Of a DNA stretch of 64,000 bases, positions 1 through 60,252 are shown piece after piece. The translations under genes and the position numbers were made by a program. Where the stretch lies: assembly GCF_013122565.1 (NCBI RefSeq), contig NZ_CP053258.1. One strand, written 5' to 3'. This DNA is from Escherichia coli (GTDB taxonomy: Bacteria; Pseudomonadota; Gammaproteobacteria; Enterobacterales; Enterobacteriaceae). The notes below the pieces were generated by a model. That model saw nothing but the letters and a program-made list of their open reading frames with translations. It made no database searches and was not told where the DNA came from. How positions within the stretch are numbered: position 1 is the first letter of the stretch; every line of letters begins with the position of its first letter.

Positions 1-713
1 CGCTCTCCTGTTCAGCCGATCGCAATATCAAAGCAAAAATTAACAAGCACGGTATCTGGCTGGAAAAACTCGAACACAATCCGGGGCAATATATTCCAGC
101 CTCACTATGGGAAGAAAATCACGCGCAACATGTACAACTGGATCTAAACCGTCCGTTGCGTGACGTGATGCAGGATCTCGCCAGATTACCGGTAGGTACC
201 CGCGTGTCGTTAAGTGGTCCCATCGTAGTGGCGCGCGATATCGCCCACGCCAAAATAAAAGCGCGGCTGGATAGCGGCGAATCGATGCCGGAGTACCTGA
301 AGCATCATATTGTCTATTACGCTGGCCCGGCGAAAACACCGGAGAACATGGCCTGCGGTTCACTAGGTCCAACCACGGGCGGTCGAATGGACGGTTATGT
401 CGATACCTTCCAGGCTGCTGGCGGCAGTCTGGTGATGTTATCGAAAGGTAACCGCAGCCAGCAGGTCACCGATGCCTGTCACAAACATGGTGGCTTCAAT
501 CTGGGAAGTATTGGCGGTGCAGCTGCGTTACTGGCGCAAGAATATGTCAAAAGTCTGCGTTGCCTGGAATACCCGGAGCTGGGTATGGAAGCGGTGTGGA
601 TGATGGAAGTGGAAAATCTGCCCGCATTCATCCTGGTAGATGATAAAGGCAATAATTTCTTTAGTCAGTTTGAGCAGCAACACCGCTGCGCCAGTTGCCC
701 TGCGGGACATTAA
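1..713 (+). CDS. Class I (Fe-S) fumarate hydratase, FumA/FumB-family paralog; 3' portion only, 5' end lies outside the window
   Basis: Frame 3 is open from position 3 to the stop at 711-713. The translation ([31 protein letters not shown] ... [12 protein letters not shown] ... ELGMEAVW ... [12 protein letters not shown]) matches the hinge and C-terminal domain of FumA/FumB as I recall them. The ORF track shows only the TTG-initiated tail 156..713. Confidence 0.8.
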
Positions 714-722
714 GGAAAATGA

Positions 723-1325
723 ATGGAAGCGCGAATTTCAACTGAACGGCATGTGCAGCGCCAGCAGAAATTGAAGGAACAGGTCGATACGCGCGTCGCG
801 GCGGCGATAGAGAAAAAAGGGATCTTGATTGTTTTCACCGGCAATGGCAAAGGGAAATCCACTGCCGCGTTTGGTACGGTGACGCGCGCGGTGGGTCATG
901 GCAAAACGGTGGGGGTTGCGCAGTACATCAAGGGGCAATGGGACAACGGCGAATACAACCTTCTCCAGCCGCTCGGGGTTGAGTTTCATATTATGGGAAC
1001 CGGTTTTACCTGGGAGACACAGAACCGGCAAGCGGATATCGACGCGGCGAAAGAGGTCTGGTCGGAAAGCAAACGGATGCTGGCTGACAAGCGTTACGAC
1101 TTAGTGGTGCTTGATGAGCTGACCTATATGCTGGCTTACCATTATCTGGATACCGAAGAAGTGATCGCTTCTCTGCAAAACCGCCCGGCACAACAAAGTG
1201 TCATTGTCACCGGACGCGGTTGCCACAGTCAGATATTAAAAATGGCGGATACGGTCAGCGAAATCCGCCCCGTCAAACATGCTTTTGATAACGGCATTCA
1301 GGCCCAGCCGGGTATCGACTGGTAA
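723..1325 (+). CDS. Cob(I)yrinic acid a,c-diamide / cob(I)alamin adenosyltransferase family protein (BtuR/CobO-like paralog)
   Basis: 200 aa with P-loop GNGKGKSTAAFG and strong similarity to E. coli BtuR as recalled (VFTGNGKGK, GFTWETQNR, VVLDELTYM, TGRGC, VSE-RPVKHAFD). AAGGA Shine-Dalgarno sits 6 nt upstream of the ATG and 9 bp after the fumarase stop. Confidence 0.8.
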   Translation: MEARISTERHVQRQQKLKEQVDTRVAAAIEKKGILIVFTGNGKGKSTAAFGTVTRAVGHGKTVGVAQYIKGQWDNGEYNLLQPLGVEFHIMGTGFTWETQNRQADIDAAKEVWSESKRMLADKRYDLVVLDELTYMLAYHYLDTEEVIASLQNRPAQQSVIVTGRGCHSQILKMADTVSEIRPVKHAFDNGIQAQPGIDW

Positions 1326-1328
1326 TAA

Positions 1329-1360
1329 CTGCGCCTGGCATCCCGCCAGGCGCAGGTTTT
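1329..1360. terminator. Bidirectional intrinsic terminator between the convergent CobO-like and LysR genes
   Basis: Perfect 11-bp inverted repeat CTGCGCCTGGC-atccc-GCCAGGCGCAG followed by GTTTT on the + strand and flanked by an A/T run for the opposite strand. Confidence 0.5.
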
Positions 1361-2264
1361 ACATCTCCTGCGGTACGACCGATTTCGCCAGCAACCATTC
1401 ACGAAATTGCTGCAAGTGCGGCGAGTCAGACTTCTCTTCCTGCCACGTCATAATAAAACGATTACCGGTACGAATAGGCACATCACAGGGAATCACCATA
1501 TCGCCACTATCCAAATCATGTTGAATAGCGAACCGTGGTAACAGCGCCACGCCGAGATTAGAGCGCACGGCGGCAATCAACATTGAAAGCAAATCGAAAC
1601 GTGGCCCGTTGTTGACCAGCGGACTGCTAACGCCAGATAAAGCAAACCACTCTTCCCAGCCAGTAATACGGGTGCTTTGATGCAGAAGTGGTAACTCAGT
1701 AAGCAGTTCTGCCACTGACAGTTTTTGATCGGACATTGCAAGCAAACTGCCGCTGCATACCGGCAAAATCTCCTCTTCAAAGAGATATTCTACTTCCGCC
1801 CAGGGCGCGCAAAAATTTTCGCGCATAATGACAGCATCGTACTCCCGATTAAGAAAATCGCCGTTATTAGCTAAAGAATGAATATTAACAATAATATCGG
1901 GATGTAACTTTGTGAATTCATGTAAATTTGGGATTAACCAGTGGGTACTAAAAGTAGGATTAACGGCAAGTTCAATAACCTGAACCGTAGGCTGCCAGGT
2001 CATAATGGTATTGGTATCGCGTTCCAGCTTATTTAATGTTTCTTTTACTATCCCCAGGTAATACTTCCCTGCATCATTAAGAAAAATACGTTTTTTAGAG
2101 TGTGAAAATAACGGAGTACGTAAAAATTCCTCCAGCGCACTTACTTGTCTGAATACTGCACTTTGGGTTAACGCTAACTCCTCTGCCGCTCTGGTATAAC
2201 TTTCATGACGTGCGACGACCTCAAAAGTCACCAGCAGTTCCGTTTTAGGTATTTTTCCTCGCAT
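1359..2264 (-). CDS. LysR-family transcriptional regulator
   Basis: N-terminal HTH region (LVTFEVVARHESYTRAAEELALTQSAVFRQVSALEEFL) and LysR-type substrate-binding C-terminus. Start chosen at MRGKIPKTELL (2264) rather than the longer track ORF starting at 2294. Confidence 0.8.
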   Translation of the reverse strand: MRGKIPKTELLVTFEVVARHESYTRAAEELALTQSAVFRQVSALEEFLRTPLFSHSKKRIFLNDAGKYYLGIVKETLNKLERDTNTIMTWQPTVQVIELAVNPTFSTHWLIPNLHEFTKLHPDIIVNIHSLANNGDFLNREYDAVIMRENFCAPWAEVEYLFEEEILPVCSGSLLAMSDQKLSVAELLTELPLLHQSTRITGWEEWFALSGVSSPLVNNGPRFDLLSMLIAAVRSNLGVALLPRFAIQHDLDSGDMVIPCDVPIRTGNRFIMTWQEEKSDSPHLQQFREWLLAKSVVPQEM

Positions 2265-2854
2265 AATGCCTTCCGTGAAAAAATAACAATTCAAAAAATT
2301 ATTTTATAAAAAACAGTAGCGCTAATGAATATCATAATTCAAATAAACAAACCAGTCAGCTATATGTCTAACCAGGAAAATAAAGTGACAATAATCCTAA
2401 AACAGGAATTTCACCTCAGTTATCCGCATGCAATGCTTTAAAGCCATTATTGCAAGAATATTATTCATATACATGAATATACTCTAAATAAGTCGAGTTG
2501 GAGGAAGGGAACAAATAATGAATTTCCAGAAGCTTACATAAGTAAGTGACCTGGGTGAGCGAACATCGATGCAGCACATGCAACTTGAATTATGACAAGT
2601 ATACAATGATAAATTTAGATACCCTATGTTATATATTATCTATGTCCGGTTAAATTGAATGAGTCATGGCCTTCAAAGACATCGCAAAAGATAATTTCTC
2701 TTTAACAATAAGCCAGATTTACCACTTGTAAAAATTGCTATCGCCACATACACTACGCGCGTTTTCTTTCCCTTTTGCTGGCTGCTGACCGGAAAGACAA
2801 AATTACCCTCGCAATACAGGGGGTTGTTTAACGTCTATATTTCAGGACAGCGTT

Positions 2855-4252
2855 ATGCATCATCTTTCAAGGCTTGATAAAGCCTTTCTGCGCAAAGGGA
2901 TCCAACTTTCCCGCGCCAACAATATTGTTTCATTATCTCGTCCATCAGGTGTCAGTGCCCGCGTACTGCTGCCAGACGAACTGCCGCTGGAAGAAAAAGC
3001 AGTAACACAACTGCTTGATTTTGCAGAAGTGAAGCTACCAGACCACCCAGGTTATGTACGCCAGACGTGTGCGACGCCAGATTTTCATCCCGGCAATGGC
3101 GTCCCCGTTGGCGCGGTGGTAGCCTCAACGCCGGATTTAGTCATTCCCGCCGCCATCGGCACCGATATTTCTTGTGGCATGCGGCTGCTGACGACCGGAA
3201 TAACACTTGAGCAAGCCGAAGCGCATAAAGACGTCATCACTCAGCGGTTAACGCAAGTGTTACTGCAAAATGAGCGCGATGTTCCGTTATCTGCACGAGC
3301 GTTCACCGCGCTTTTTGATGGCGGGCCGGCAGATTGCATGTCGGCCTTGCCATCAGCAGGTCTCTGGACACGCACGAATATCCCCCGAATGGTACAAGAG
3401 ATTGACCGCTGCATTGGGCTGAACGAGCATAAAAGTCATTCGCGTTATGCCCCACCCGCCCTGCTGGCAACGGACCGCGCATTACTCCGCGACCCTTGTC
3501 TGGGTACGCCGGGTTCAGGTAATCATTTTATTGAACTTCAGGTAGTTGATAGCGTGATCGATCGCCATGTAGCCTGGCAACAAGGGCTGAAAACAGGCGA
3601 TATCGTGGTGATGATCCATAGTGGATCGCGAGATGTCGGCTTTTACGTCGGACGACGCTGGACGGACCGTGCCCGCGCAGACTGGCCCGCTGGGCATAAA
3701 CATCCACAAAGCGGGTTATATGGTCTGGCTGGTGGACTGGCGGAGGAATATCTACAAGCGATGGGAATGGCGGCGCGTTACGCATGGTTAAATCGCGTGA
3801 CCATTACGGAAATGGTGCGCGTATGTTTTGCCGATTTATTCCATCAGGATGAATCACATCTGGTGGTGGATGTGCCGCATAACATCATCCTTCGCGAGCA
3901 TGAGATGAATATTCATCGCAAAGGCGCAACACCGGCACGTGCGGGCGATCTGGCGTTAATCCCCGGTTCAATGGGCGATTATTCGTGGCTTGCGGTAGGT
4001 TGCGGCAACCCGGAGTGGTTGTGGTCATGCAGTCACGGAGCAGGACGCAGCCAGCGTCGGCAGGCCATGCGCGCACACGCGACTGAAGAGTCAACGCTGC
4101 CGTGGCAATGCGTAACACTGCGTGAAGAACGGCGTATTGAGGAAGCGCCAGCTGCTTATAAAGATATTGGTCCGGTTATCGAAGCCCAACAAGAAGCTGG
4201 ATTAATTCAGCCAGCGGTCAGATTTCGACCGTGGTTAACGTTTAAGGCATAA
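2855..4252 (+). CDS. RtcB-family RNA ligase paralog (orphan)
   Basis: 465 aa with the RtcB signature motifs DISCGMR, GSGNHFIE, HSGSR, HN...HRKGA, IPGSMG and SHGAGR. Stop codon is immediately followed by the sucD 3' terminator palindrome. Confidence 0.8.
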   Translation: MHHLSRLDKAFLRKGIQLSRANNIVSLSRPSGVSARVLLPDELPLEEKAVTQLLDFAEVKLPDHPGYVRQTCATPDFHPGNGVPVGAVVASTPDLVIPAAIGTDISCGMRLLTTGITLEQAEAHKDVITQRLTQVLLQNERDVPLSARAFTALFDGGPADCMSALPSAGLWTRTNIPRMVQEIDRCIGLNEHKSHSRYAPPALLATDRALLRDPCLGTPGSGNHFIELQVVDSVIDRHVAWQQGLKTGDIVVMIHSGSRDVGFYVGRRWTDRARADWPAGHKHPQSGLYGLAGGLAEEYLQAMGMAARYAWLNRVTITEMVRVCFADLFHQDESHLVVDVPHNIILREHEMNIHRKGATPARAGDLALIPGSMGDYSWLAVGCGNPEWLWSCSHGAGRSQRRQAMRAHATEESTLPWQCVTLREERRIEEAPAAYKDIGPVIEAQQEAGLIQPAVRFRPWLTFKA

Positions 4253-4349
4253 AAAAGGCCATCATACGATGGCCAACCATGTCGAAACCGACAGCCCTTC
4301 GCCATTCCTGTAGAGGGAAGCGGCGAGGGCTATTTCTTATTACAGATAT
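4253..4349 (-). ncRNA. sdhX: sucD 3'UTR-derived sRNA (SdhX/RybD-like) with intrinsic terminator
   Basis: Minus-strand region directly after the sucD stop ends in hairpin GGCCATCGTATGATGGCC followed by TTTTTT (4253-4276 on +). Position and terminator match the SdhX sRNA as I recall it; exact 5' end not determinable. Confidence 0.5.
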
Positions 4350-5219
4350 TTATTTCAGAACAGTTTTCAGTGCTTCACCGATATCCGCCAGGCTGCGAAC
4401 GGTTTTCACGCCTGCGGCTTCCAGAGCCGCGAATTTCTCATCCGCAGTCCCTTTCCCACCGGCAATGATGGCACCTGCGTGGCCCATACGTTTGCCTTTC
4501 GGCGCAGTCACACCAGCGATGTAACCTACAACTGGCTTGGTAACGTGCTCTTTGATGTACGCTGCTGCTTCTTCTTCAGCGCTACCGCCGATCTCACCGA
4601 TCATCACGATCGCTTCGGTCTGCGGATCTTTTTCGAACATTTCGAGGATGTCGATAAAGTTAGAGCCAGGGATCGGGTCACCGCCGATACCAACACAGGT
4701 CGACTGACCGAAACCGTAATCCGTGGTCTGTTTAACCGCTTCATAGGTCAGTGTACCGGAACGGGAAACGATACCCACTTTACCCGGTTTGTGAATGTGA
4801 CCAGGCTGGATACCGATTTTGCATTCACCTGGGGTGATAACGCCCGGGCAGTTCGGGCCGATCATACGAACGCCGGCTTCATCCAGTTTCACTTTCACAG
4901 TCAGCATATCCAGCGTCGGGATGCCTTCAGTGATGGTGATAATCAGTTTGATGCCTGCGTCGATGGCTTCCAGAATGGAGTCTTTGCAGAACGGTGCTGG
5001 TACGTAGATAACAGAAGCGGTAGCGCCAGTGGCAGCAACGGCTTCACGCACGGTGTTGAACACCGGCAGGCCGAGGTGGGTGGTGCCGCCTTTACCTGGG
5101 GTTACGCCGCCAACCATTTTAGTGCCGTATGCAATAGCCTGTTCTGAGTGGAAAGTCCCCTGGCTACCGGTAAAACCCTGGCAGATAACCTTGGTGTTTT
5201 TATCAATTAAAATGGACAT
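4350..5219 (-). CDS. sucD: Succinyl-CoA synthetase alpha subunit
   Basis: 289 aa, [27 protein letters not shown]..., CoA-binding and phosphohistidine motifs; start overlaps the sucC stop. Confidence 0.97.
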
Positions 5220-6385
5220 TATTTCCCCTCCACTGCGGCAACAACCTGCTGAGCTGCATCCGTCAGACCTTTTGCTGCAATAATATTCAGGCCGCTGTCA
5301 GCCAGTTTCTTCGCGCCGAGTTCGGCGTTGTTACCTTCCAGACGTACCACGACCGGTACGTTAACACCCACTTCCGCTACCGCGCCGATGATACCGTCAG
5401 CGATCAGGTCGCAACGAACGATACCGCCGAAGATGTTAACCAGAACGGCTTTCACTTTGTCGTCAGAGAGGATGATTTTGAACGCTTCGGTTACACGTTC
5501 TTTGGTTGCGCCGCCGCCAACGTCCAGGAAGTTAGCCGGTTCGCCGCCGTGCAGTTTAACGATGTCCATCGTACCCATCGCCAGACCTGCGCCGTTAACC
5601 ATACAACCGATGTTACCGTCCAGCGCAACGTAGTTCAGTTCCCACTGTGCAGCTTGTGCTTCACGTGGATCTTCCTGCGACTGGTCACGCATTTCGCGCA
5701 GATCAGGCTGGCGGAACAGTGCGTTGCCATCAGCGCCCAGTTTGCCGTCGAGGCAAATCAGATCGCCCTGTTTGGTAATGACCAGCGGGTTGATTTCGAT
5801 CAGCGCCAGGTCACGCTCCAGGAAAATGGTCGCCAGGCCCATGAAGATTTTGGTGAACTGCTGAACCAGTTTACCTTCCAGACCAAGTTTGAACGCCAGC
5901 TCGCGTCCCTGATACGGCATCGGGCCAGTCAGCGGATCAAGCGCAACTTTATGGATCAGGTGCGGAGTTTCTTCCGCCACTTTTTCGATTTCCACGCCGC
6001 CTTCGGTGGAGGCCATAAAGACCACGCGACGTGAACTACGGTCTACAACGGCACCGAGATACAGCTCTTTAGCGATATCGGTCGCCGCTTCAACCAGAAT
6101 CTGGTTAACCGGTTGGCCATTGGCATCTGTTTGATACGTTACCAGACGCTTGCCCAGCCAGTTTTCTGCAAAAGCACGGATGTCTTCTTTGCTGTTTACA
6201 ACTTTCACACCGCCCGCTTTACCGCGGCCACCAGCGTGAACCTGACATTTCACTACCCACGGACCGGCACCGATTTTTGAAGCGGCTTCTTCTGCTTCGC
6301 GCGGAGTAGTACAGGCATAACCCACCGGTGCTGGTAAGCCATAGCGGGCAAAAAGTTGTTTTGCCTGATATTCATGTAAGTTCAT
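5219..6385 (-). CDS. sucC: Succinyl-CoA synthetase beta subunit
   Basis: 388 aa, [18 protein letters not shown]..., ATP-grasp domain. Confidence 0.97.
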
Positions 6386-6469
6386 GTGTTCTGTCCATCC
6401 TTCAGTAATCGTTATCTTTTAAACCGTAGACCGAATATTTCGTATCGCTTCCGGGTATTGTCGGTCACC

Positions 6470-6640
6470 CGTAGGCCTGATAAGACGCGTCAGCGTCGCA
6501 TCAGGCATCGCTTGTCGGATGCGGCGCGAGCGCCTTATCCGACCTACATCGGTGCTTCCCGTAGGCCTGATAAGACGCGTTAAGCGTCGCATCAGGCTTC
6601 AATGGCCGGAGAAGGCGATAATGCCTTATCCGGTCTACAG
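6470..6640. repeat. BIME / cluster of REP palindromes in the sucB-sucC intergenic region
   Basis: Several alternating-orientation REP units (GCCTGATGCGACGCT...CTTATCAGGCCTAC type, and GCCGGATGCGGCG...CTTATCCGACCTAC). Confidence 0.85.
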
Positions 6641-6660
6641 TGCAGGTGAAGCTTAAACTA

Positions 6661-7878
6661 CTACACGTCCAGCAGCAGACGCGTCGGATCTTCCAGCAAC
6701 TCTTTGATCGTTACCAGGAAGCCCACGGATTCGCGACCATCGATCAGACGGTGATCGTAGGACAGCGCCAGGTACATCATCGGCAGGATCTCAACCTGAC
6801 CATTCACCGCCATCGGACGATCTTTGATAGCGTGCATACCCAGAATTGCGCTCTGCGGCGGGTTGATGATCGGCGTAGACATCAGGGAACCGAACACACC
6901 ACCGTTGGTGATAGTGAAGTTACCACCGGTCAGATCTTCAACGGTCAGCTTGCCGTCACGGCCTTTGACTGCCAGCTCTTTGATTTTCTTCTCGATGTCT
7001 GCCATGCCGAGGGTATCGACATCACGCAGTACCGGCGTCACCAGGCCGCGCGGCGTAGAAACCGCCATGCTGACGTCGAAATAGTTGTGGTAAACCACAT
7101 CATCGCCGTCGATAGAAGCATTCACTTCCGGGTAACGTTTCAGGGCTTCAACCACCGCTTTCACGTAGAAGGACATAAAGCCCAGACGGATGCCGTGACG
7201 TTTTTCAAACGCTTCACCGTACTGCTTACGCAGATCCATAATCGGCTTCATGTTGACTTCGTTGAACGTGGTCAGCATGGCGGTGGAGTTTTTCGCTTCC
7301 AGCAGACGCTCTGCCACACGCTTACGCAGGCGAGTCATCGGGACACGTTTTTCGCTACGTGCAGCCAGAGCCGGTTGCGCCGCCGGAGCAGCCGCTGCCG
7401 GAGCAGACTCTTTCGCCGGGGCTTTCGCCAGATGTTTTTCCACATCTTCACGAGTCAGACGACCACCCACACCGGTGCCTTTAATGGCGCTGGCGTCGAG
7501 ATTGTGTTCAGCCAGCAGGCGACGGATCGCCGGGCTTAACGCATCGTTGTTTTGCTCTTCCAGAGACGCCTGCTGGCGTTGCGCCGGAGTGGACGCTTTC
7601 TCTTCAGATTTGGCGCTGGTTTCTTTACCGGCGCTGTTGCCTTCACGCAGGCGACCAAGGATCTGACGAGACGTTACCGTTGTACCTTCATCTTCCAGAA
7701 CCGCATCCAGAATGCCGTCTGCTGATGCCGGTACTTCCAGTACCACTTTGTCAGTTTCGATTTCTACCAGCACTTCATCACGTACGACTGCGTCGCCGGG
7801 TTTTTTATGCCAGGTTGCGACGGTGGCATCGGCTACGGATTCAGGCAGGTCAGGGACCAGAATATCTACGCTACTCAT
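6661..7878 (-). CDS. sucB: 2-oxoglutarate dehydrogenase E2 (dihydrolipoyllysine succinyltransferase)
   Basis: 405 aa, lipoyl domain ([14 protein letters not shown]), Ala/Pro-rich linker, catalytic DHRLIDG motif. Confidence 0.97.
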
Positions 7879-7892
7879 TGTGTATCCTTTAT

Positions 7893-10694
7893 TTATTCGA
7901 CGTTCAGCGCGTCATTAACCAGATCTTGTTGCTGTTTCTGGTGAACGGACATATACCCTACCGCCGGAGAGGCGGAGGCCGGGCGGCCTGCATAACGCAG
8001 AGAAGCCCCAAACGGAATCACTTCACGGAAATGATGCTGGCTGCAGTACCATGCGCCCTGGTTGAGCGGCTCTTCCTGGCACCAGACAAAATCCTTGACG
8101 TGAGCAAACTGCTGCAACACTTCCTGCATCGCTTTATGCGGGAACGGGTAGAGTTGCTCGATACGCACAATGGCGACATCGTGTTGATTGTTCTTACGAC
8201 GCTGTTCCAGCAGGTCGTAATAAACCTTACCAGAACACATCACTACGCGCTTCACGCCCTTCGGATCAAGCTCGTCGATTTCACCGATGGCTGGCAGGAA
8301 GGTGCCGTTCGCCAGTTCTTCGAGGCTGGAAACCGCCAGCGGATGACGCAGCAGGGATTTCGGCGACATCACGACCAGCGGACGACGCATCCCGCGCAGC
8401 GCCTGACGACGCAGCATGTGGTAAACCTGTGCCGGGGTAGACGGTACGCACACCTGCATGTTTTGCTCAGCGCAAAGTTGCAGATAACGTTCCAGACGCG
8501 CGGAGGAGTGCTCCGGCCCCTGCCCTTCGTAACCGTGTGGCAGCAACATCACCAGGCCACACATCCGGCCCCATTTCTGTTCGCCAGAGGAGATGAACTG
8601 GTCGATAACCACCTGAGCACCGTTAGCGAAGTCACCGAACTGCGCTTCCCAGATGGTCAGAGTGCGTGGTTCTGCGGTGGCATAACCGTATTCAAACGCC
8701 AGCACGGCTTCTTCAGACAGTACGGAGTCCCAGACACGGAACGCGCCCTGGCCGTTATGGATGTGTTGCAGCGGCGTGTAAGTGGAACCGTTAGACTGGT
8801 TGTGGATCACCGCGTGGCGGTGGAAGAAGGTACCGCGACCGGAGTCTTCACCCGACAGGCGAACCGGAATGCCTTCGTCAACCAGCGTGGCGTAAGCGAG
8901 GTTTTCCGCGCCGCCCCAGTCGAACAGTTTCTCACCGGCTGCCATCGCCTGGCGATCGCCATAAATCTTGGCAACGCGAGACTGCATTTCAACTGCTTCC
9001 GGCACCGTGCTGATGCGTTTAGCCAGTTCCTGCAGGCGCTTCATCTCAACTTTGTTCGGGTACTCTTCGTCCCATTCGTGGTTGAGGTACGGCGACCAGG
9101 TGAAGGAGTGCATGTTCATCGGACGCCACTCTGCTACCACGCAATCGCCAGCATCCAGCGCATCGCGGTACAGGTTAACCATCTCGGTGGCATCTTCCAG
9201 CGTCGCGACTTTTTCCTGCTCCAGCTTGTCTGCGTAGATTTTGCGCGGCGTTGGATGTTTTTTGATTTTCTGATACATCAGCGGCTGGGTTGCGCTCGGC
9301 TCGTCGGCTTCGTTGTGGCCGTGACGGCGGTAGCACACCAGGTCGATGAAGACATCACGTTTAAAGGTGTTACGGAAATCGAGCGCCAGACGGGTCACAA
9401 AGGCAACGGCTTCCGGATCATCCGCGTTAACGTGGAAAATCGGTGCCTGAACCATCTTACCGATATCAGTACAGTACGGCGTCGAACGTGCATCCAGCGG
9501 ATTAGAGGTGGTGAAGCCAACCTGGTTGTTGATAACGATACGTACCGTACCGCCAACTTCATAACCACGCGCTTTCGACATGTTCAGGGTTTCCTGAACC
9601 ACGCCCTGCCCGGTCACTGCGGCGTCACCGTGGATGGTGATTGGCAGCACTTTGTTGCTGCTCGGCTCATCGAGTCTGTCCAGACGGGCACGAACAGAAC
9701 CGATAACGACCGGGCTGACAATCTCAAGGTGAGACGGGTTAAACGCCAGCGCCAGGTGCACCAGGCCGCCATCGGTCTGGAAGTCAGACGAGAAGCCCAT
9801 GTGGTATTTCACGTCGCCTGTGCCGAGGTGTTCTTTATGTTTACCGGCAAACTCGTCGAACAAGTCTTGCGGTTTTTTACCCAGCACGTTCACCAGCACG
9901 TTCAGACGACCACGGTGCGCCATCCCGAGAACCACTTCGCGGGTGCCGCTGTTGCCCGCGTGGCGGATCATCTCTTTAAGCATCGGGATTAACGCGTCAC
10001 CGCCTTCCAGCGAGAAGCGTTTTGCGCCAGGGAATTTTGCGCCGAGGTAACGTTCAAGGCCTTCAGCGGCGGTCAGTTCGCTTAAGAAGCGTTTTTTCTC
10101 TTCGCTATTGAAAGTCGCGCGACCAGACTCGATACGCTGTTGGATCCAGCGTTTTTCTTCGGTGCTGGTAATGTGCATATACTCGGCGCCAATCGGGCCG
10201 CAGTAGGTTTGCTTCAGGGCTTCCAGCAGTTCACCGAGTTTCATGGTTTCTTTGCCGCTGGCAAATGAACCGACGTTGAAGGTCTCCTGGAAGTCTGCTT
10301 CGGTCAGATCGTGGAAAGACGGATCCAGATCGGCCACTTTATCTTGCTGCCACAGTCCCAGCGGATCGAGATTCGCATGCTGGTGACCACGGAAGCGGTA
10401 TGCGTTAATGAGCTGCAGGACTTTAACCTGCTTCACATTGGTGTCAGGGTCGGAGATCGTTGAAGAGTAACGTGAAGCGTCTTTCGCCAGGCGGCGGAAA
10501 TATTCACGCGTTTGAGAGTGGAATTGATCCGGTTTGACTCCCGTACCAGGTAACTGCTGGAACGTCGAACGCCAGTTAGCGTCAACCGAGTCAGGATCGG
10601 TTAAGAAGTCTTCATAGAGCTGTTCTATCCAGCTCTGGTTTGCGCCAGAGAGGTAAGAAGAGTCCAACCAGGCTTTCAAAGCGCTGTTCTGCAT
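7893..10694 (-). CDS. sucA: 2-oxoglutarate dehydrogenase E1 component
   Basis: 933 aa, [34 protein letters not shown]...; thiamine-diphosphate enzyme. Confidence 0.97.
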
Positions 10695-10873
10695 CGTGAT
10701 CCCTTAAGCATCTTTTTTATGCTTACTTCGCCGTGGATACTACCACGCACAGTGATGTGCGTGCCGGGGTTCACTTGCGAGCTCTTGTCTACGTAGTGGC
10801 TCGCGAAGGAACCTTTAAAAACTGTCTTAGTGTCAGGGGCAGTTTTTAAAGATTTCCTGCATTTCTTTGTTAC

Positions 10874-10992
10874 GCCTGATGCGCTGCGCTTATCAGGCCT
10901 ACGGGTAATGACGTGTAGGCCGGATAAGGCGTTCACGCCGCATCCGGCACTGGTTGCCTGATAAGACGCTTGAGCGTCTTATCAGGCCTACG
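10874..10992. repeat. REP cluster in the sdhB-sucA intergenic region
   Basis: Three REP units including two copies of CTTATCAGGCCTAC (10892-10902 and 10981-10991 contain ATCAGGCCTAC). Confidence 0.85.
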
Positions 10993-10994
10993 GT

Positions 10995-11711
10995 TTACGC
11001 ATTACGTTGCAACAACATCGACTTGATATGACCGATGGCGCGCGTCGGGTTCAGCCCCTTCGGACATACACTGACGCAGTTCATGATGCTGTGACAGCGG
11101 AATACACTGAATGCATCGCTCAAACCGTCGAGGCGGCTGTCAGTCTCGGTATCACGGCTATCGATCAGGAAACGATATGCCGCTAACAAGCCTGCCGGGC
11201 CGATAAACTTATCGGGATTCCACCAGAAAGACGGACAAGAGGTTGAACAACATGCGCAGAGAATACATTCATACAGCCCGTCGAGTTTTTCGCGCTGCTC
11301 TGGCATCTGTAAATGCTCGCGAGCTGGCGGATTTTGTTCATTATTCAACAGGTAAGGCTTAATTTTCTCATATTGCGCATAGAATTGTCCCATGTCTACC
11401 ACCAAATCGCGGATCACCGGTAAACCTGGCAGAGGGCGAATCACAATCTTCTTGCCCGGCTGGTTGAGTGCCGAAATTGGGGTAATACAGGCCAGACCAT
11501 TCTTGCCGTTCATGTTCAGACCGTCGGAACCGCACACACCTTCACGACAGGAGCGACGGAACGACAGGCTGGGATCTTTCTCTTTCAGCTGGATAAGCGC
11601 ATCCAGCAGCATCATGTCACGACCTTCTTCCGCTTCCAGGGTGTAATCCTGCATACGCGGAGCATCATCAACATCCGGGTTATAGCGATAAATTGAAAAC
11701 TCGAGTCTCAT
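10995..11711 (-). CDS. sdhB: Succinate dehydrogenase iron-sulfur subunit
   Basis: 238 aa, Cys clusters for the 2Fe-2S, 4Fe-4S and 3Fe-4S centres. Confidence 0.97.
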   Translation of the reverse strand: MRLEFSIYRYNPDVDDAPRMQDYTLEAEEGRDMMLLDALIQLKEKDPSLSFRRSCREGVCGSDGLNMNGKNGLACITPISALNQPGKKIVIRPLPGLPVIRDLVVDMGQFYAQYEKIKPYLLNNEQNPPAREHLQMPEQREKLDGLYECILCACCSTSCPSFWWNPDKFIGPAGLLAAYRFLIDSRDTETDSRLDGLSDAFSVFRCHSIMNCVSVCPKGLNPTRAIGHIKSMLLQRNA

Positions 11712-11726: not shown

Positions 11727-13493
11727 TTAGTAAGTACGAATCTTCGGCGGGAATGCCGGACGCAGTTTCGGTTCCATGTTGACGCTTCGGCGCGTCATGG
11801 ATTCCGACTCTGGCAGATACAGGGAGTGGCACAGCCAGTTTTCATCATCACGATCCGGGAAGTCGAAGCGGCTATGCGCGCCACGGCTTTCGGTACGGAA
11901 GTTGGCAGAAACAGCCGTTGCATACGCCGTTTCCATCAGGTTATCCAGTTCCAGGCACTCAACGCGCTGGGTGTTGAACTCGCTGGAAGTGTCATCCAGA
12001 CGGGCATTTTTCAGACGCTCGCGGATAACTTTCAACTGCTCAAGCCCTTTCGCCATCGCATCACCTTCACGGAAGACCGAGAAGTTATGCTGCATACATT
12101 CTTGCAGCGCTTTACGAATCGCCACCGGATCTTCACCGTTACGATTATTGTTCCAGCGGTTCAGACGATCCAGAGATGCTTCAACATCAGACTCGCTGGC
12201 ATCGCGCAATGCGCCCTGCTCGGCGATAGACTCTTGCAGATGCAGACCCGCTGCGCGACCAAAGACCACCAGGTCCAGCAGCGAGTTGCCGCCCAGACGG
12301 TTAGCACCGTGTACCGATACGCAGGCAATTTCACCTACCGCGAACAGCCCCGGAACAACCACATCTTCGCCTTTCTCATTCACAGTCAGCGCCTGACCGG
12401 TAACTTTGGTCGGAATACCGCCCATCATGTAGTGACAGGTTGGGATAACCGGAATCGGCTCTTTCACCGGATCAACGTGAGCAAAGGTACGGGAAAGCTC
12501 CAGGATACCCGGCAGACGGGATTCGAGAACTTCTTTACCCAGGTGATCGAGTTTCAGTTTCGCGTGTGGCCCCCACGGACCATCACAGCCGCGACCTTCA
12601 CGGATTTCAATCATGATGGAACGCGCCACCACATCACGGCCCGCCAGGTCTTTGGCGTTCGGCGCATAACGCTCCATAAAGCGTTCGCCATGTTTGTTCA
12701 GCAGATAACCGCCTTCACCACGGCAACCTTCGGTGACCAGTACGCCCGCACCGGCAATGCCGGTCGGGTGGAATTGCCACATTTCCATATCCTGCACCGG
12801 TACGCCTGCGCGGATAGCCATGCCGACACCGTCACCGGTGTTAATGTGGGCGTTAGTGGTGGACTGATAAATACGCCCTGCCCCGCCAGTCGCCAGCACG
12901 GTAGCGCGGGCTTTGAAATAAACCACTTCACCGGTTTCGATGCACAGTGCGGTACAACCCACCACCGCGCCATCCTGGTTTTTCACCAGATCCAGCGCAT
13001 ACCACTCGGAGAAAATGGTGGTGTGGTTTTTCAGGTTCTGCTGATAAAGCGTGTGCAACAGTGCGTGACCGGTACGGTCAGCCGCTGCCGCAGTGCGTGC
13101 CGCCTGCTCGCCGCCGAAGTTTTTCGACTGACCGCCAAACGGACGTTGATAGATACGACCATCATCGAGACGCGAGAACGGCAGGCCCATGTGTTCCAGT
13201 TCCAGAATCGCTTCCGGCCCGGTTTTACACATATATTCAATCGCGTCCTGGTCACCGATATAGTCCGACCCTTTCACGGTGTCGTACATATGCCATTCCC
13301 AGTTATCTTCATGGGTATTACCCAGCGCAACGGTAATGCCGCCTTGCGCAGAAACGGTATGGGAACGGGTCGGGAAGACTTTAGAGAGCAGCGCACAGGT
13401 CTGGCCGCTCTGGGAAATTTGCAGCGCCGCGCGCATACCTGCGCCGCCGGCACCAATCACAACTGCATCAAATTCTCTGACTGGCAATTTCAT
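11727..13493 (-). CDS. sdhA: Succinate dehydrogenase flavoprotein subunit
   Basis: Start trimmed to [24 protein letters not shown] (FAD-binding GxGxxG); 588 aa. Confidence 0.97.
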
Positions 13494-13840
13494 CACACAC
13501 CCCACACCACAACGAATCCATAAATCACGTAAACCACCAGTGCAACGACAATCACCAGTTGCAGCATCAGGCGCAAAGCCAGCGGTTTAACGTAGTCGGT
13601 CAACACCTGCCACATGCCGATCCAGGCATGGATCAAGATAGAAAACAGCGCCAGCAGGGTGAACACTTTGGTGAACGCAGAGGCGAAGAAACCGATCCAG
13701 ACTTCATATGTCAGTTCGCCACTGGTGGCGAAAAAACCGACCATATAAATGATGTAGAGCGTCAGGACGATAGCGGTAGCGCGAACGAGGATGAAATCAT
13801 GTACGCCATTGCGTCCTAATGCGGAGGCGTTGCTTACCAT
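13493..13840 (-). CDS. sdhD: Succinate dehydrogenase membrane anchor subunit
   Basis: 115 aa hydrophobic protein, [21 protein letters not shown]... Confidence 0.95.
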
Positions 13841-39994: not shown

Positions 39995-40043
39995 TGGGAT
40001 TTCCTTGAGCTACTCAGTTTGTTGACAAAGTGTTCGTTGTTTT

Positions 40044-40142
40044 TGCCGGATGCGGCGTGAACGCCTTATCCGGCCTACAAAATCGCGTAAATTCAATATA
40101 TTGCACCATCCTCGTAGGCCTGATAAGCGTAGCGCATCAGGC
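40044..40142. repeat. REP pair (BIME) between ybfP and pgm
   Basis: GCCGGATGCGGCGTGAACGCCTTATCCGGCCTAC and the inverted unit GTAGGCCTGATAAGCGTAGCGCATCAGGC. Confidence 0.85.
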
Positions 40143-40208
40143 AATTCTGTGTTTGTCATACGTAAAAAAGGGCGATCTTCTGACCGCCCTTTTTCTTATT
40201 TAATGTGT

Positions 40209-55705: not shown

Positions 55706-55756
55706 ATAGCAACCACGTCTGCGGACGTGGTTGATACTGATGACAAATGCCAAACT

Positions 55757-55854
55757 GCCTGATGCGCTACGCTTATCAGGCCTACGCAGCTCCTGCAATA
55801 TATTGAATTTTCATGCTTTTGTAGGCCGGATAAGGCGTTCACGCCGCATCCGGC
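55757..55854. repeat. REP pair (BIME) between nagD and asnB
   Basis: GCCTGATGCGCTACGCTTATCAGGCCTAC and inverted GTAGGCCGGATAAGGCGTTCACGCCGCATCCGGC. Confidence 0.85.
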
Positions 55855-56101
55855 ATGAACAAATCGCACTTTGTCAGTAATTTGGCCCCCGTAAAATATA
55901 ACCATTCAATAAAACCCGCTAAAAATTATCGATTCATCAATAAATACATCCTTACACCAGACCTTTTTTCACCAATCGACAATCACCATTACGTTTTTTA
56001 TTTTTTCACCGCCAAATCGCTTGCGCACAGTGCTGCTTTGCGGCATTTTTTTAAACAAGCAAACACAACAAGCAACAAATACCAGGTTAACGGAGAAGGT
56101 T

Positions 56102-58144: not shown

Positions 58145-58221
58145 GGCTACGTAGCTCAGTTGGTTAGAGCACATCACTCATAATGATGGGGTCACAGGTT
58201 CGAATCCCGTCGTAGCCACCA
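58145..58221 (+). tRNA. metT: tRNA-Met (elongator, anticodon CAT)
   Basis: GGCTACGTAGCTCAGTTGGTTAGAGCACATCACTCATAATGATGGGGTCACAGGTTCGAATCCCGTCGTAGCCACCA; cloverleaf with encoded CCA. Confidence 0.95.
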
Positions 58222-58230
58222 TCTTTTTTT

Positions 58231-58315
58231 GCGGGAGTGGCGAAATTGGTAGACGCACCAGATTTAGGTTCTGGCGCCGCAAGGTGTGCGAGTTCAAGTC
58301 TCGCCTCCCGCACCA
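58231..58315 (+). tRNA. leuW: tRNA-Leu (anticodon TAG), long variable arm
   Basis: GCGGGAGTGGCGAAATTGGTAGACGCACCAGATTTAGGTTCTGG...CTCGCCTCCCGCACCA. Confidence 0.95.
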
Positions 58316-58338
58316 TTCACCAGAAAGCGTTGTACGGA

Positions 58339-58413
58339 TGGGGTATCGCCAAGCGGTAAGGCACCGGTTTTTGATACCGGCATTCCCTGGTTCGAATCCA
58401 GGTACCCCAGCCA
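58339..58413 (+). tRNA. glnU: tRNA-Gln (anticodon TTG)
   Basis: TGGGGTATCGCCAAGCGGTAAGGCACCGGTTTTTGATACCGGCATTCCCTGGTTCGAATCCAGGTACCCCAGCCA. Confidence 0.95.
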
Positions 58414-58447
58414 TCTTCTTCGAGTAAGCGGTTCACCGCCCGGTTAT

Positions 58448-58522
58448 TGGGGTATCGCCAAGCGGTAAGGCACCGGTTTTTGATACCGGCATTCCCTGGT
58501 TCGAATCCAGGTACCCCAGCCA
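58448..58522 (+). tRNA. glnW: tRNA-Gln (anticodon TTG), duplicate
   Basis: Identical to the glnU sequence. Confidence 0.95.
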
Positions 58523-58537
58523 TCGAAGAAACAATCT

Positions 58538-58614
58538 GGCTACGTAGCTCAGTTGGTTAGAGCACATCACTCATAATGATGGGGTCACAGGTTCGAATCC
58601 CGTCGTAGCCACCA
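58538..58614 (+). tRNA. metU: tRNA-Met (elongator, anticodon CAT), duplicate
   Basis: Identical to the metT sequence. Confidence 0.95.
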
Positions 58615-58662
58615 AATTCTGAATGTGTCGAATACGTTCGGCAAATTCAAAAACCAATTTGT

Positions 58663-58737
58663 TGGGGTATCGCCAAGCGGTAAGGCACCGGATTCTGATT
58701 CCGGCATTCCGAGGTTCGAATCCTCGTACCCCAGCCA
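58663..58737 (+). tRNA. glnV: tRNA-Gln (anticodon CTG)
   Basis: TGGGGTATCGCCAAGCGGTAAGGCACCGGATTCTGATTCCGGCATTCCGAGGTTCGAATCCTCGTACCCCAGCCA. Confidence 0.95.
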
Positions 58738-58774
58738 ATTTATTCAAGACGCTTACCTTGTAAGTGCACCCAGT

Positions 58775-58849
58775 TGGGGTATCGCCAAGCGGTAAGGCAC
58801 CGGATTCTGATTCCGGCATTCCGAGGTTCGAATCCTCGTACCCCAGCCA
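58775..58849 (+). tRNA. glnX: tRNA-Gln (anticodon CTG), duplicate
   Basis: Identical to the glnV sequence. Confidence 0.95.
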
Positions 58850-58967: not shown

Positions 58968-60191
<1,224 letters not shown>

Positions 60192-60192
60192 C

Positions 60193-60252
<60 letters not shown>

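Follow-up and report, generated by a model that had tools for sequence, protein, structure and literature searches.

What does a run of REP palindromes do in the middle of an otherwise tightly packed metabolic operon? In the 64-kb stretch of Escherichia coli DNA analysed here (the window), a REP-rich spacer had been predicted between sucB and sucC, inside the sdh-suc transcription unit, and the open reading frame coordinates place it there exactly, at 6386-6660 (Table 1). The rest of the operon is packed as closely as had been stated, with sucD and sucC overlapping and gaps of about 14-15 bp between sucA and sucB and between sdhA and sdhB. The other big gap of the operon lies between sdhB and sucA and contains REPs too. 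In the RefSeq annotation of the best-matching E. coli records the genes flanking the spacer are named sucC and odhB (= sucB), and over the query the top-matching complete E. coli genome shows 98.7% identity. We also note that the sucB stop is a tandem in-frame pair, TAG TAG, at 6658-6663 (-).

Several features surround the cluster within the same region. The sdhB-sucA spacer (10695-10994) holds a second REP cluster of the same transcription unit, at 10887-10991. An Rfam naRNA4 match of 83.5 bits at 10918-10988 (+) in this spacer is antisense to the operon, so that its y+z2 unit is oriented opposite to those of the sucB-sucC spacer. At the far end of the operon, the terminator sequence of the SdhX sRNA in the sucD 3' UTR (4251-4278, -) is conserved exactly. 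Downstream of it (1-4252), an RtcB-family gene at 2855-4252 converges on the terminator, accompanied by genes for a LysR regulator, a class I fumarate hydratase fragment and cobO, where K-12 instead has mngR/mngAB. This arrangement downstream of sucD is uncommon, 143 of 5,426 E. coli genomes having it.

Table 1. Coordinates of the operon genes, the sucB-sucC REP cluster and the IS621-family element in the window
Feature	Position	Strand	Details
sucD	4350-5219	-	ORF listing
sucC	5219-6385	-	ORF listing
sucB-sucC intercistronic spacer with BIME-2	6386-6660	-	275 bp; ORF coordinates and K-12 alignment
sucB	6661-7878	-	ORF listing
sucA	7893-10694	-	ORF listing
sdhB	10995-11711	-	ORF listing
sdhA	11727-13505	-	ORF listing
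Closing helix, 5' arm on transcript	6627-6641	-	inverted repeat; predicted fold
REP 1 on transcript, degenerate y (y')	6603-6638	-	GTAG foot on transcript strand; hairpin -16.4 kcal/mol
REP 2, z2 type	6561-6597	-	inverted on transcript, CTAC foot; hairpin -21.5 kcal/mol
REP 3, central y type	6514-6547	-	plus strand GTCGGATGCGGCG..CGCCTTATCCGACCTAC; hairpin -20.7 kcal/mol
REP 4, second z2 type	6471-6506	-	hairpin -21.7 kcal/mol
Palindrome 5, degenerate	6426-6466	-	GTAG/CTAC foot; homologous to the lone palindrome in the 93-bp allele
Closing helix, 3' arm on transcript	6423-6437	-	inverted repeat; minimum-energy fold, five alleles
BIME-2 unit y' + z2	6564-6635	-	Rfam naRNA4, 49.8 bits, below gathering score
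BIME-2 unit y + z2	6474-6544	-	Rfam naRNA4 (RF02564), 74 bits, above the 59.5-bit gathering score
Equivalent of K-12 3' end 762937	6462	-	about 12 nt beyond last z2 stem
Equivalent of K-12 3' end 762981	6418	-	5 nt beyond closing helix
Predicted variant-guide target ATCCGACCTAC	6537-6547	+	in central y REP; 7 nt + CT core (6544-6545) + 2 nt
IS621-family element, inserted in REP	58971-60249	+	1279 bp; transposase 59162-60142; guide strands 59034-59042 and 59056-59064

Architecture of the spacer

The sucB-sucC spacer is a BIME-2 of two tandem 90/91-bp units, in each of which a y-type REP faces a z2-type REP. Four clear REPs and a degenerate fifth palindrome account for the three or more palindromes of the original prediction. 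Their order on the transcript is y'-z2-y-z2, followed by the degenerate palindrome, and GTAG and CTAC feet alternate (GTAG at 6426, 6471 and 6561 on the plus strand; CTAC at 6544-6547 and 6635-6638). The four clear REPs are interrupted stems of 34-37 nt, with hairpins of -16.4 to -21.7 kcal/mol and linkers of 5-13 nt between REPs, and a repeat finder recovered two families of direct repeats at 90/91-bp spacing together with local inverted repeats. Across the window, REP-tail motifs gave 9 and 11 matches where 0.02 and 0.35 would be expected; none of 100 shuffles gave as many, and six REP sites were found where about 0 were expected.

REPs are defined as imperfect palindromes of 30-40 nt whose stem has a mismatch or bulge inside it, and a BIME-2 as z2 and y REPs with short linkers, in tandem and in strain-variable copy number, a BIME-1 having a long linker that binds IHF (Ton-Hoang et al., PMC3333891). 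The palindromes of the spacer are imperfect, interrupted and 30-40 nt long, carry the conserved GTAG tetranucleotide at the 5' foot (CTAC in the inverted copy), lie outside genes (between the sucB stop and sucC start codons) and have many dispersed copies, a 461-bp megablast query hitting 13 places in the median E. coli genome. The y and z2 REPs alternate in inverse orientation over short linkers, in tandem copies that vary between strains. A BIME-1 architecture is ruled out, since there is no long linker, the IHF consensus WATCAANNNNTTR has no occurrence in 6386-6660, and the z REPs are of the long z2 form. Small proteins are likewise unsupported as products of the spacer, the overlapping open reading frames of 26-65 aa on both strands being Arg-rich read-throughs of the palindromes. 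Elsewhere in the window, an inverted pair of 142-nt sequences (40023-40164 and 55735-55876, 85% complementary and 15.6 kb apart) combines a y REP with a short z-type REP in BIME-1-like pairs at 40063-40129 and 55770-55836; Rfam ES036 (CssrF) matches at 55778-55820 (-).

Folded as RNA, the whole spacer reaches -116 kcal/mol (z = -7.6 against dinucleotide shuffles). The degenerate palindrome at 6426-6466 has no significant structure when folded alone. Five alleles were folded, and in each the minimum-energy structure is predicted to have a long-range closing helix around the entire cluster. The 275-bp spacer aligns over its full length with the 274-bp spacer of K-12 MG1655 (NC_000913.3, 762740-763013), and by this alignment it is the orthologue of the K-12 sucB-sucC REP cluster, which has already been described and named BIME-2 (Sutormin et al., PMC6379681). 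Position, order of the five palindromes and flanks are the same, and the differences are scattered substitutions in loops and linkers plus 1-nt indels. No functional difference between the two spacers is expected.

Both units also match the Rfam naRNA4 model on the transcribed strand and align to its two-hairpin y + z2 consensus, one of them scoring above the gathering score. Processing of the abundant suc transcript might accordingly release naRNA4-like y+z2 RNAs that bind HU. The model, however, in effect describes any y+z2 pair, and the match follows from the spacer being a BIME-2; we found no evidence for a discrete RNA of roughly 80 nt, nor for HU binding, from the suc locus, and regard such a source as highly improbable.

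RNA 3' ends and the sdh-suc message

In the malEFG operon, REPs form stem-loops that stop 3'-to-5' exonucleases, and REP hairpins protect the RNA on their 5' side. We lean, with a confidence somewhat above even, towards the sucB-sucC cluster being an RNA barrier of this sort, its stem-loops yielding a stable RNA that ends after sucAB and uncoupling sucCD from it. In the sdhCDAB-sucABCD transcript the palindromes would fold into very stable stem-loops, which would block 3'-to-5' exonucleases and may pause polymerase, and as a consequence RNAs ending just downstream of the cluster would accumulate. The message containing sucAB would then be more stable than that of sucCD and partly uncoupled from it, and the translation start of sucC would keep its own unstructured ribosome-binding region. 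Because the protected RNA is that on the 5' side, the stabilised message is expected to be sdhCDAB-sucAB, not sucCD. The original reading survives once corrected in this way: for sucCD an uncoupling or relative reduction is expected, and not a stabilisation.

Evidence on RNA ends comes from the Term-seq data of K-12 (Adams et al. 2021, PMC7815308, supplementary file 1). Two 3' ends map within the K-12 spacer, at 762981 (LB, OD 0.4, 1569 reads) and 762937 (LB, OD 2.0, 1500 reads), both with modest read counts, and the tables for M63 minimal medium list no end in the spacer. We placed the two ends, which are K-12 data, on the window via the gap-free 3' part of the alignment (Table 1). Processed ends at the REPs, which the original prediction implied, are present in these K-12 data at the downstream edge of the cluster, and it is for the K-12 orthologue only that in vivo 3' ends a few nt downstream of a REP stem, as expected of a message stabiliser, are seen.

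The K-12 3' ends could also reflect termination instead of exonuclease stalling. Some polymerases would then terminate in or just after the cluster, in a Rho- or hairpin-dependent manner, and lower the transcription of sucCD. Ends at the downstream edge are equally compatible with such a transcriptional attenuator, and attenuation associated with BIMEs has reportedly been described before. Against it, a search of 6200-6900 on either strand found no hairpin-plus-T-run terminator, the helix being followed only by UUUAAAA, and an intrinsic (Rho-independent) terminator was rejected on the grounds that the hairpin is not followed by a T run. Nor does the K-12 bicyclomycin table contain a Rho-termination region at the coordinates of the spacer, leaving Rho-dependent termination at these coordinates unsupported by the published data (PMC7815308). 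All told, we judge attenuation of this kind unlikely.

Other ways in which the spacer might act on its neighbours were considered. No sigma-70-like promoter was found in 6200-6900, and an internal promoter for sucCD within the spacer was rejected for this reason. The Shine-Dalgarno region of sucC lies 40 nt downstream of the last palindrome, outside the REP hairpins, and is unstructured. On the upstream side, the start of the closing helix is 20 nt, and that of the first REP stem 28 nt, beyond the sucB stop. Translational down-regulation by REPs is said to need a stem within about 15 nt of the stop codon, and REP-induced ribosome stalling at the sucB stop was rejected, since the stems lie at least 20 nt downstream and thus beyond that distance.

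Variation in unit number among strains and species

A comparison of REP copy number among strains had been proposed as a check, and we surveyed 5,426 complete E. coli genomes. Copy number does vary, the spacer holding 0, 2 or 3 units of 90/91 bp. The shortest spacer, of 93 bp (for example in MS6192), has no BIME-2 unit and one palindrome, GTAGACCGAC...GTCGGTCTAC. Spacers of 261-275 bp, including those of the window and K-12, have two units (in 970 genomes the matches extend over 80% or more of the 461-bp query), and a 365-bp spacer with three units is present in about one fifth of genomes, as estimated from sampled rows. Short alleles were counted with an allele-specific 37-mer because an 85-nt query proved unsuited to the purpose, long alleles also reaching 84% coverage of it via their joined flanks. 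The exact 37-mer specific to the 93-bp allele occurs in 2,563 of the 5,426 genomes, which sets a lower bound of 47%, and sampled rows point to about 58%. The share of complete E. coli genomes that have no BIME-2 units at this site is at least 47% and probably about 60%. With about half or more of the strains devoid of units, the expansion is dispensable and cannot be essential.

Beyond E. coli, one genome of each species was scanned with a pattern, which yielded 72 Enterobacterales spacers, all of 60-152 bp except those of E. albertii (261 bp) and E. whittamii (274 bp), and among the 72 species sampled the expansion is confined to Escherichia. REP-tail motifs occur in 40 of the 72 spacers, as one REP or one pair, and the remainder have unrelated G+C-rich hairpins. 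Significant structure was found in 83% of them (z < -2, relative to mononucleotide-only shuffles), and in 90% the fold reaches -15 kcal/mol or below, be the hairpin REP-like or not. Within E. coli, the closing helix is formed in the alleles with 0, 2 and 3 units alike, spacer positions 20-34 pairing with the CGGUCUACGG side, just before UUUAAAA. We infer that the conserved feature is an old intercistronic hairpin, and that BIME-2 units were inserted and amplified inside it in Escherichia. For an RNA barrier this would mean that the selected feature is probably one stable intercistronic hairpin, present in most Enterobacterales, with the extra BIME-2 units being a dispensable, Escherichia-specific expansion. 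The units probably originated through the activity of a REP-associated tyrosine transposase or through recombination, and would be nested in a REP-like palindrome of greater age, the stem of which persists as the closing helix.

Two further observations concern the history of the site. A 261-bp allele is common to E. albertii and E. coli SCAID URN1-2021, the second z2 REP being internally truncated to GCCTGATGCGACATCAGGC in both, which suggests either an old common allele or recurrent deletion. In Salmonella enterica the REP pair between sucB and sucC has the order z-y in subsp. arizonae and y-z in subsp. diarizonae, and these opposite orders imply independent insertion, or inversion, at the same site.

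The variation bears on whether the cluster has any selected effect on suc at all. REPs may simply have accumulated in a permissive gap, through a REP-associated transposase or replication slippage, as neutral passengers. The coexistence of 93-, 261-275- and 365-bp spacers within one species fits such a history, as does the truncated z2 of E. albertii and one E. coli allele, and variable copy number is a general property of BIME-2 elements (PMC3333891). Pure neutrality is harder to reconcile with the stable hairpin kept at this position in 83% of the 72 species, including those with an unrelated sequence there, and with a closing helix that is present in every allele folded and to which RNA 3' ends map in K-12. 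These three points together make at least the basal hairpin look functional, and we consider an entirely neutral cluster rather unlikely.

A role at the level of DNA, which would be compatible with the RNA barrier, is suggested by gyrase. In the midst of a highly transcribed 10-kb operon, the cluster could act as a topological insulator, or as a strong gyrase site that does not depend on transcription. In K-12 the sucC-sucB BIME-2 is one of two with multiple in vivo cleavage sites, gyrase cuts mostly in the y REPs, and the signals rise when transcription is blocked (PMC6379681); this paper is the sole one that we found on the function of the sucB-sucC REPs specifically. To judge by its sequence, the window has the same y/z2 units. 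Set against this, y/z2 units are missing here from every non-Escherichia species sampled and from roughly half, or more, of the E. coli strains, so that a gyrase site at the suc spacer is dispensable. We hold the gyrase role to be possible, at somewhat less than even odds.

A more speculative extension of the RNA barrier is that the number of units (0, 2 or 3, inside one closing helix) acts as a strain-level rheostat of sucAB:sucCD expression, selected in lineages rather than drifting, with added units also creating landing sites for IS621-type elements. If true, unit number would set how much 2-oxoglutarate dehydrogenase (sucAB) is expressed relative to succinyl-CoA synthetase (sucCD), and each extra unit would add programmable bridge-recombinase landing sites inside a core metabolic operon. 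We think this very doubtful. The natural 0-, 2- and 3-unit alleles would permit a direct test of the effect of BIME-2 copy number on operon stoichiometry.

The IS621-family element and comparison with known systems

The cluster had also been said to offer target-like sequence to the resident insertion sequence, with a match at 6536-6546. The sole insertion sequence found in the window is an IS621-family element, itself inserted in a REP and flanked by ATCCGACCT on the left and ACAG on the right; a cluster of seven tRNA genes (58145-58846, +) lies directly upstream of that REP. The protein of the element has the Pfam domains DEDD_Tnp_IS110 and Transposase_20 and is identical to canonical IS621 at 323 of 326 positions, and PGAP names relatives of the element 'IS110-like element IS621 family'. 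Its 5' non-coding region is that of canonical IS621, apart from both strands of the bridge RNA's target-binding loop, which read ATCCGACC in place of ATCGGGCC and GCGCGGTAG in place of GTTGCGTAG. All six differences in the loop from canonical IS621 fall inside the guide strands. The target-binding loop of IS621 specifies an 11-nt target with a CT core, the REP tail ATCAGGCCTAC being its natural target (Durrant et al. 2024, PMC11208160). The variant guide is predicted, from the loop sequence, to retarget the element from ATCAGGCCTAC/ATCGGGCCTAC to ATCCGACCTAC.

The one perfect 11-nt match to ATCCGACCTAC in the 64-kb window, where about 0.03 would be expected (guide strands ATCCGACCT and GCGCGGTAG), is in the central y REP of the cluster, at 6537-6547. 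The sequence of the earlier match, TATCCGACCT, does recur at the left flank of the element (58961) and inside it (59033). Since 6537-6547 equals the full 11-nt target that the guide is predicted to specify, that match is both real and mechanistically meaningful. The canonical target ATCAGGCCTAC is present in both z2 REPs, at 6561-6571 (-) and 6471-6481 (-). The suc z2 REPs thus resemble the natural REP targets of IS621 (PMC11208160) in carrying the canonical target, and the resident variant, unlike canonical IS621, has a guide that matches the y REP and not the z2 tails. A chimeric junction query found the element at the suc site in none of the 5,426 complete E. coli genomes, which is weak evidence because the variant is rare; its guide was found in 71 copies in 28 of these genomes, and the IS621 family in 2,244. 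The best matches of the junction query were in other BIMEs, between prpB and prpC (inside the prp operon), yjgA and mpl, and codB and prpE. With its target predicted to move from the tail of a z-type REP to that of a y-type one, the element exemplifies how a bridge recombinase is retargeted in nature.

Overall, the sucB-sucC REP cluster is an ordinary and already known element, known since the operon was sequenced and already recorded as a BIME-2, as a gyrase hotspot and in 3'-end maps. The additions made here are modest: the allele series of 0, 2 and 3 units, the conserved closing helix, the mapping of the K-12 3' ends and the rare retargeted IS621 guide. The locus offers a worked example of a conserved intercistronic hairpin that was colonised and expanded by REPs in Escherichia only.

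Among known systems, REPs within operons, of the malE-malF type, are reportedly stabilisers of mRNA. The suc cluster resembles these in having REP hairpins between the cistrons of a polycistronic message, RNA 3' ends shortly after the hairpins and an expected protection of the upstream cistrons, but where the malE-malF type has two palindromes the suc site has four to five, inside a long-range helix. With REP325 / naRNA4 (RF02564) it shares the two-hairpin y + z2 unit, REP325 being at another locus. Inverted REP pairs are also the building blocks of BIME-1/RIP elements (y + z1, with a long IHF-binding linker), from which the suc cluster differs in its 5-13 nt linkers, its z2 REPs and the absence of an IHF consensus. 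The K-12 MG1655 BIME-2, at the same position, is a documented gyrase cleavage hotspot (PMC6379681) and carries the Term-seq 3' ends.
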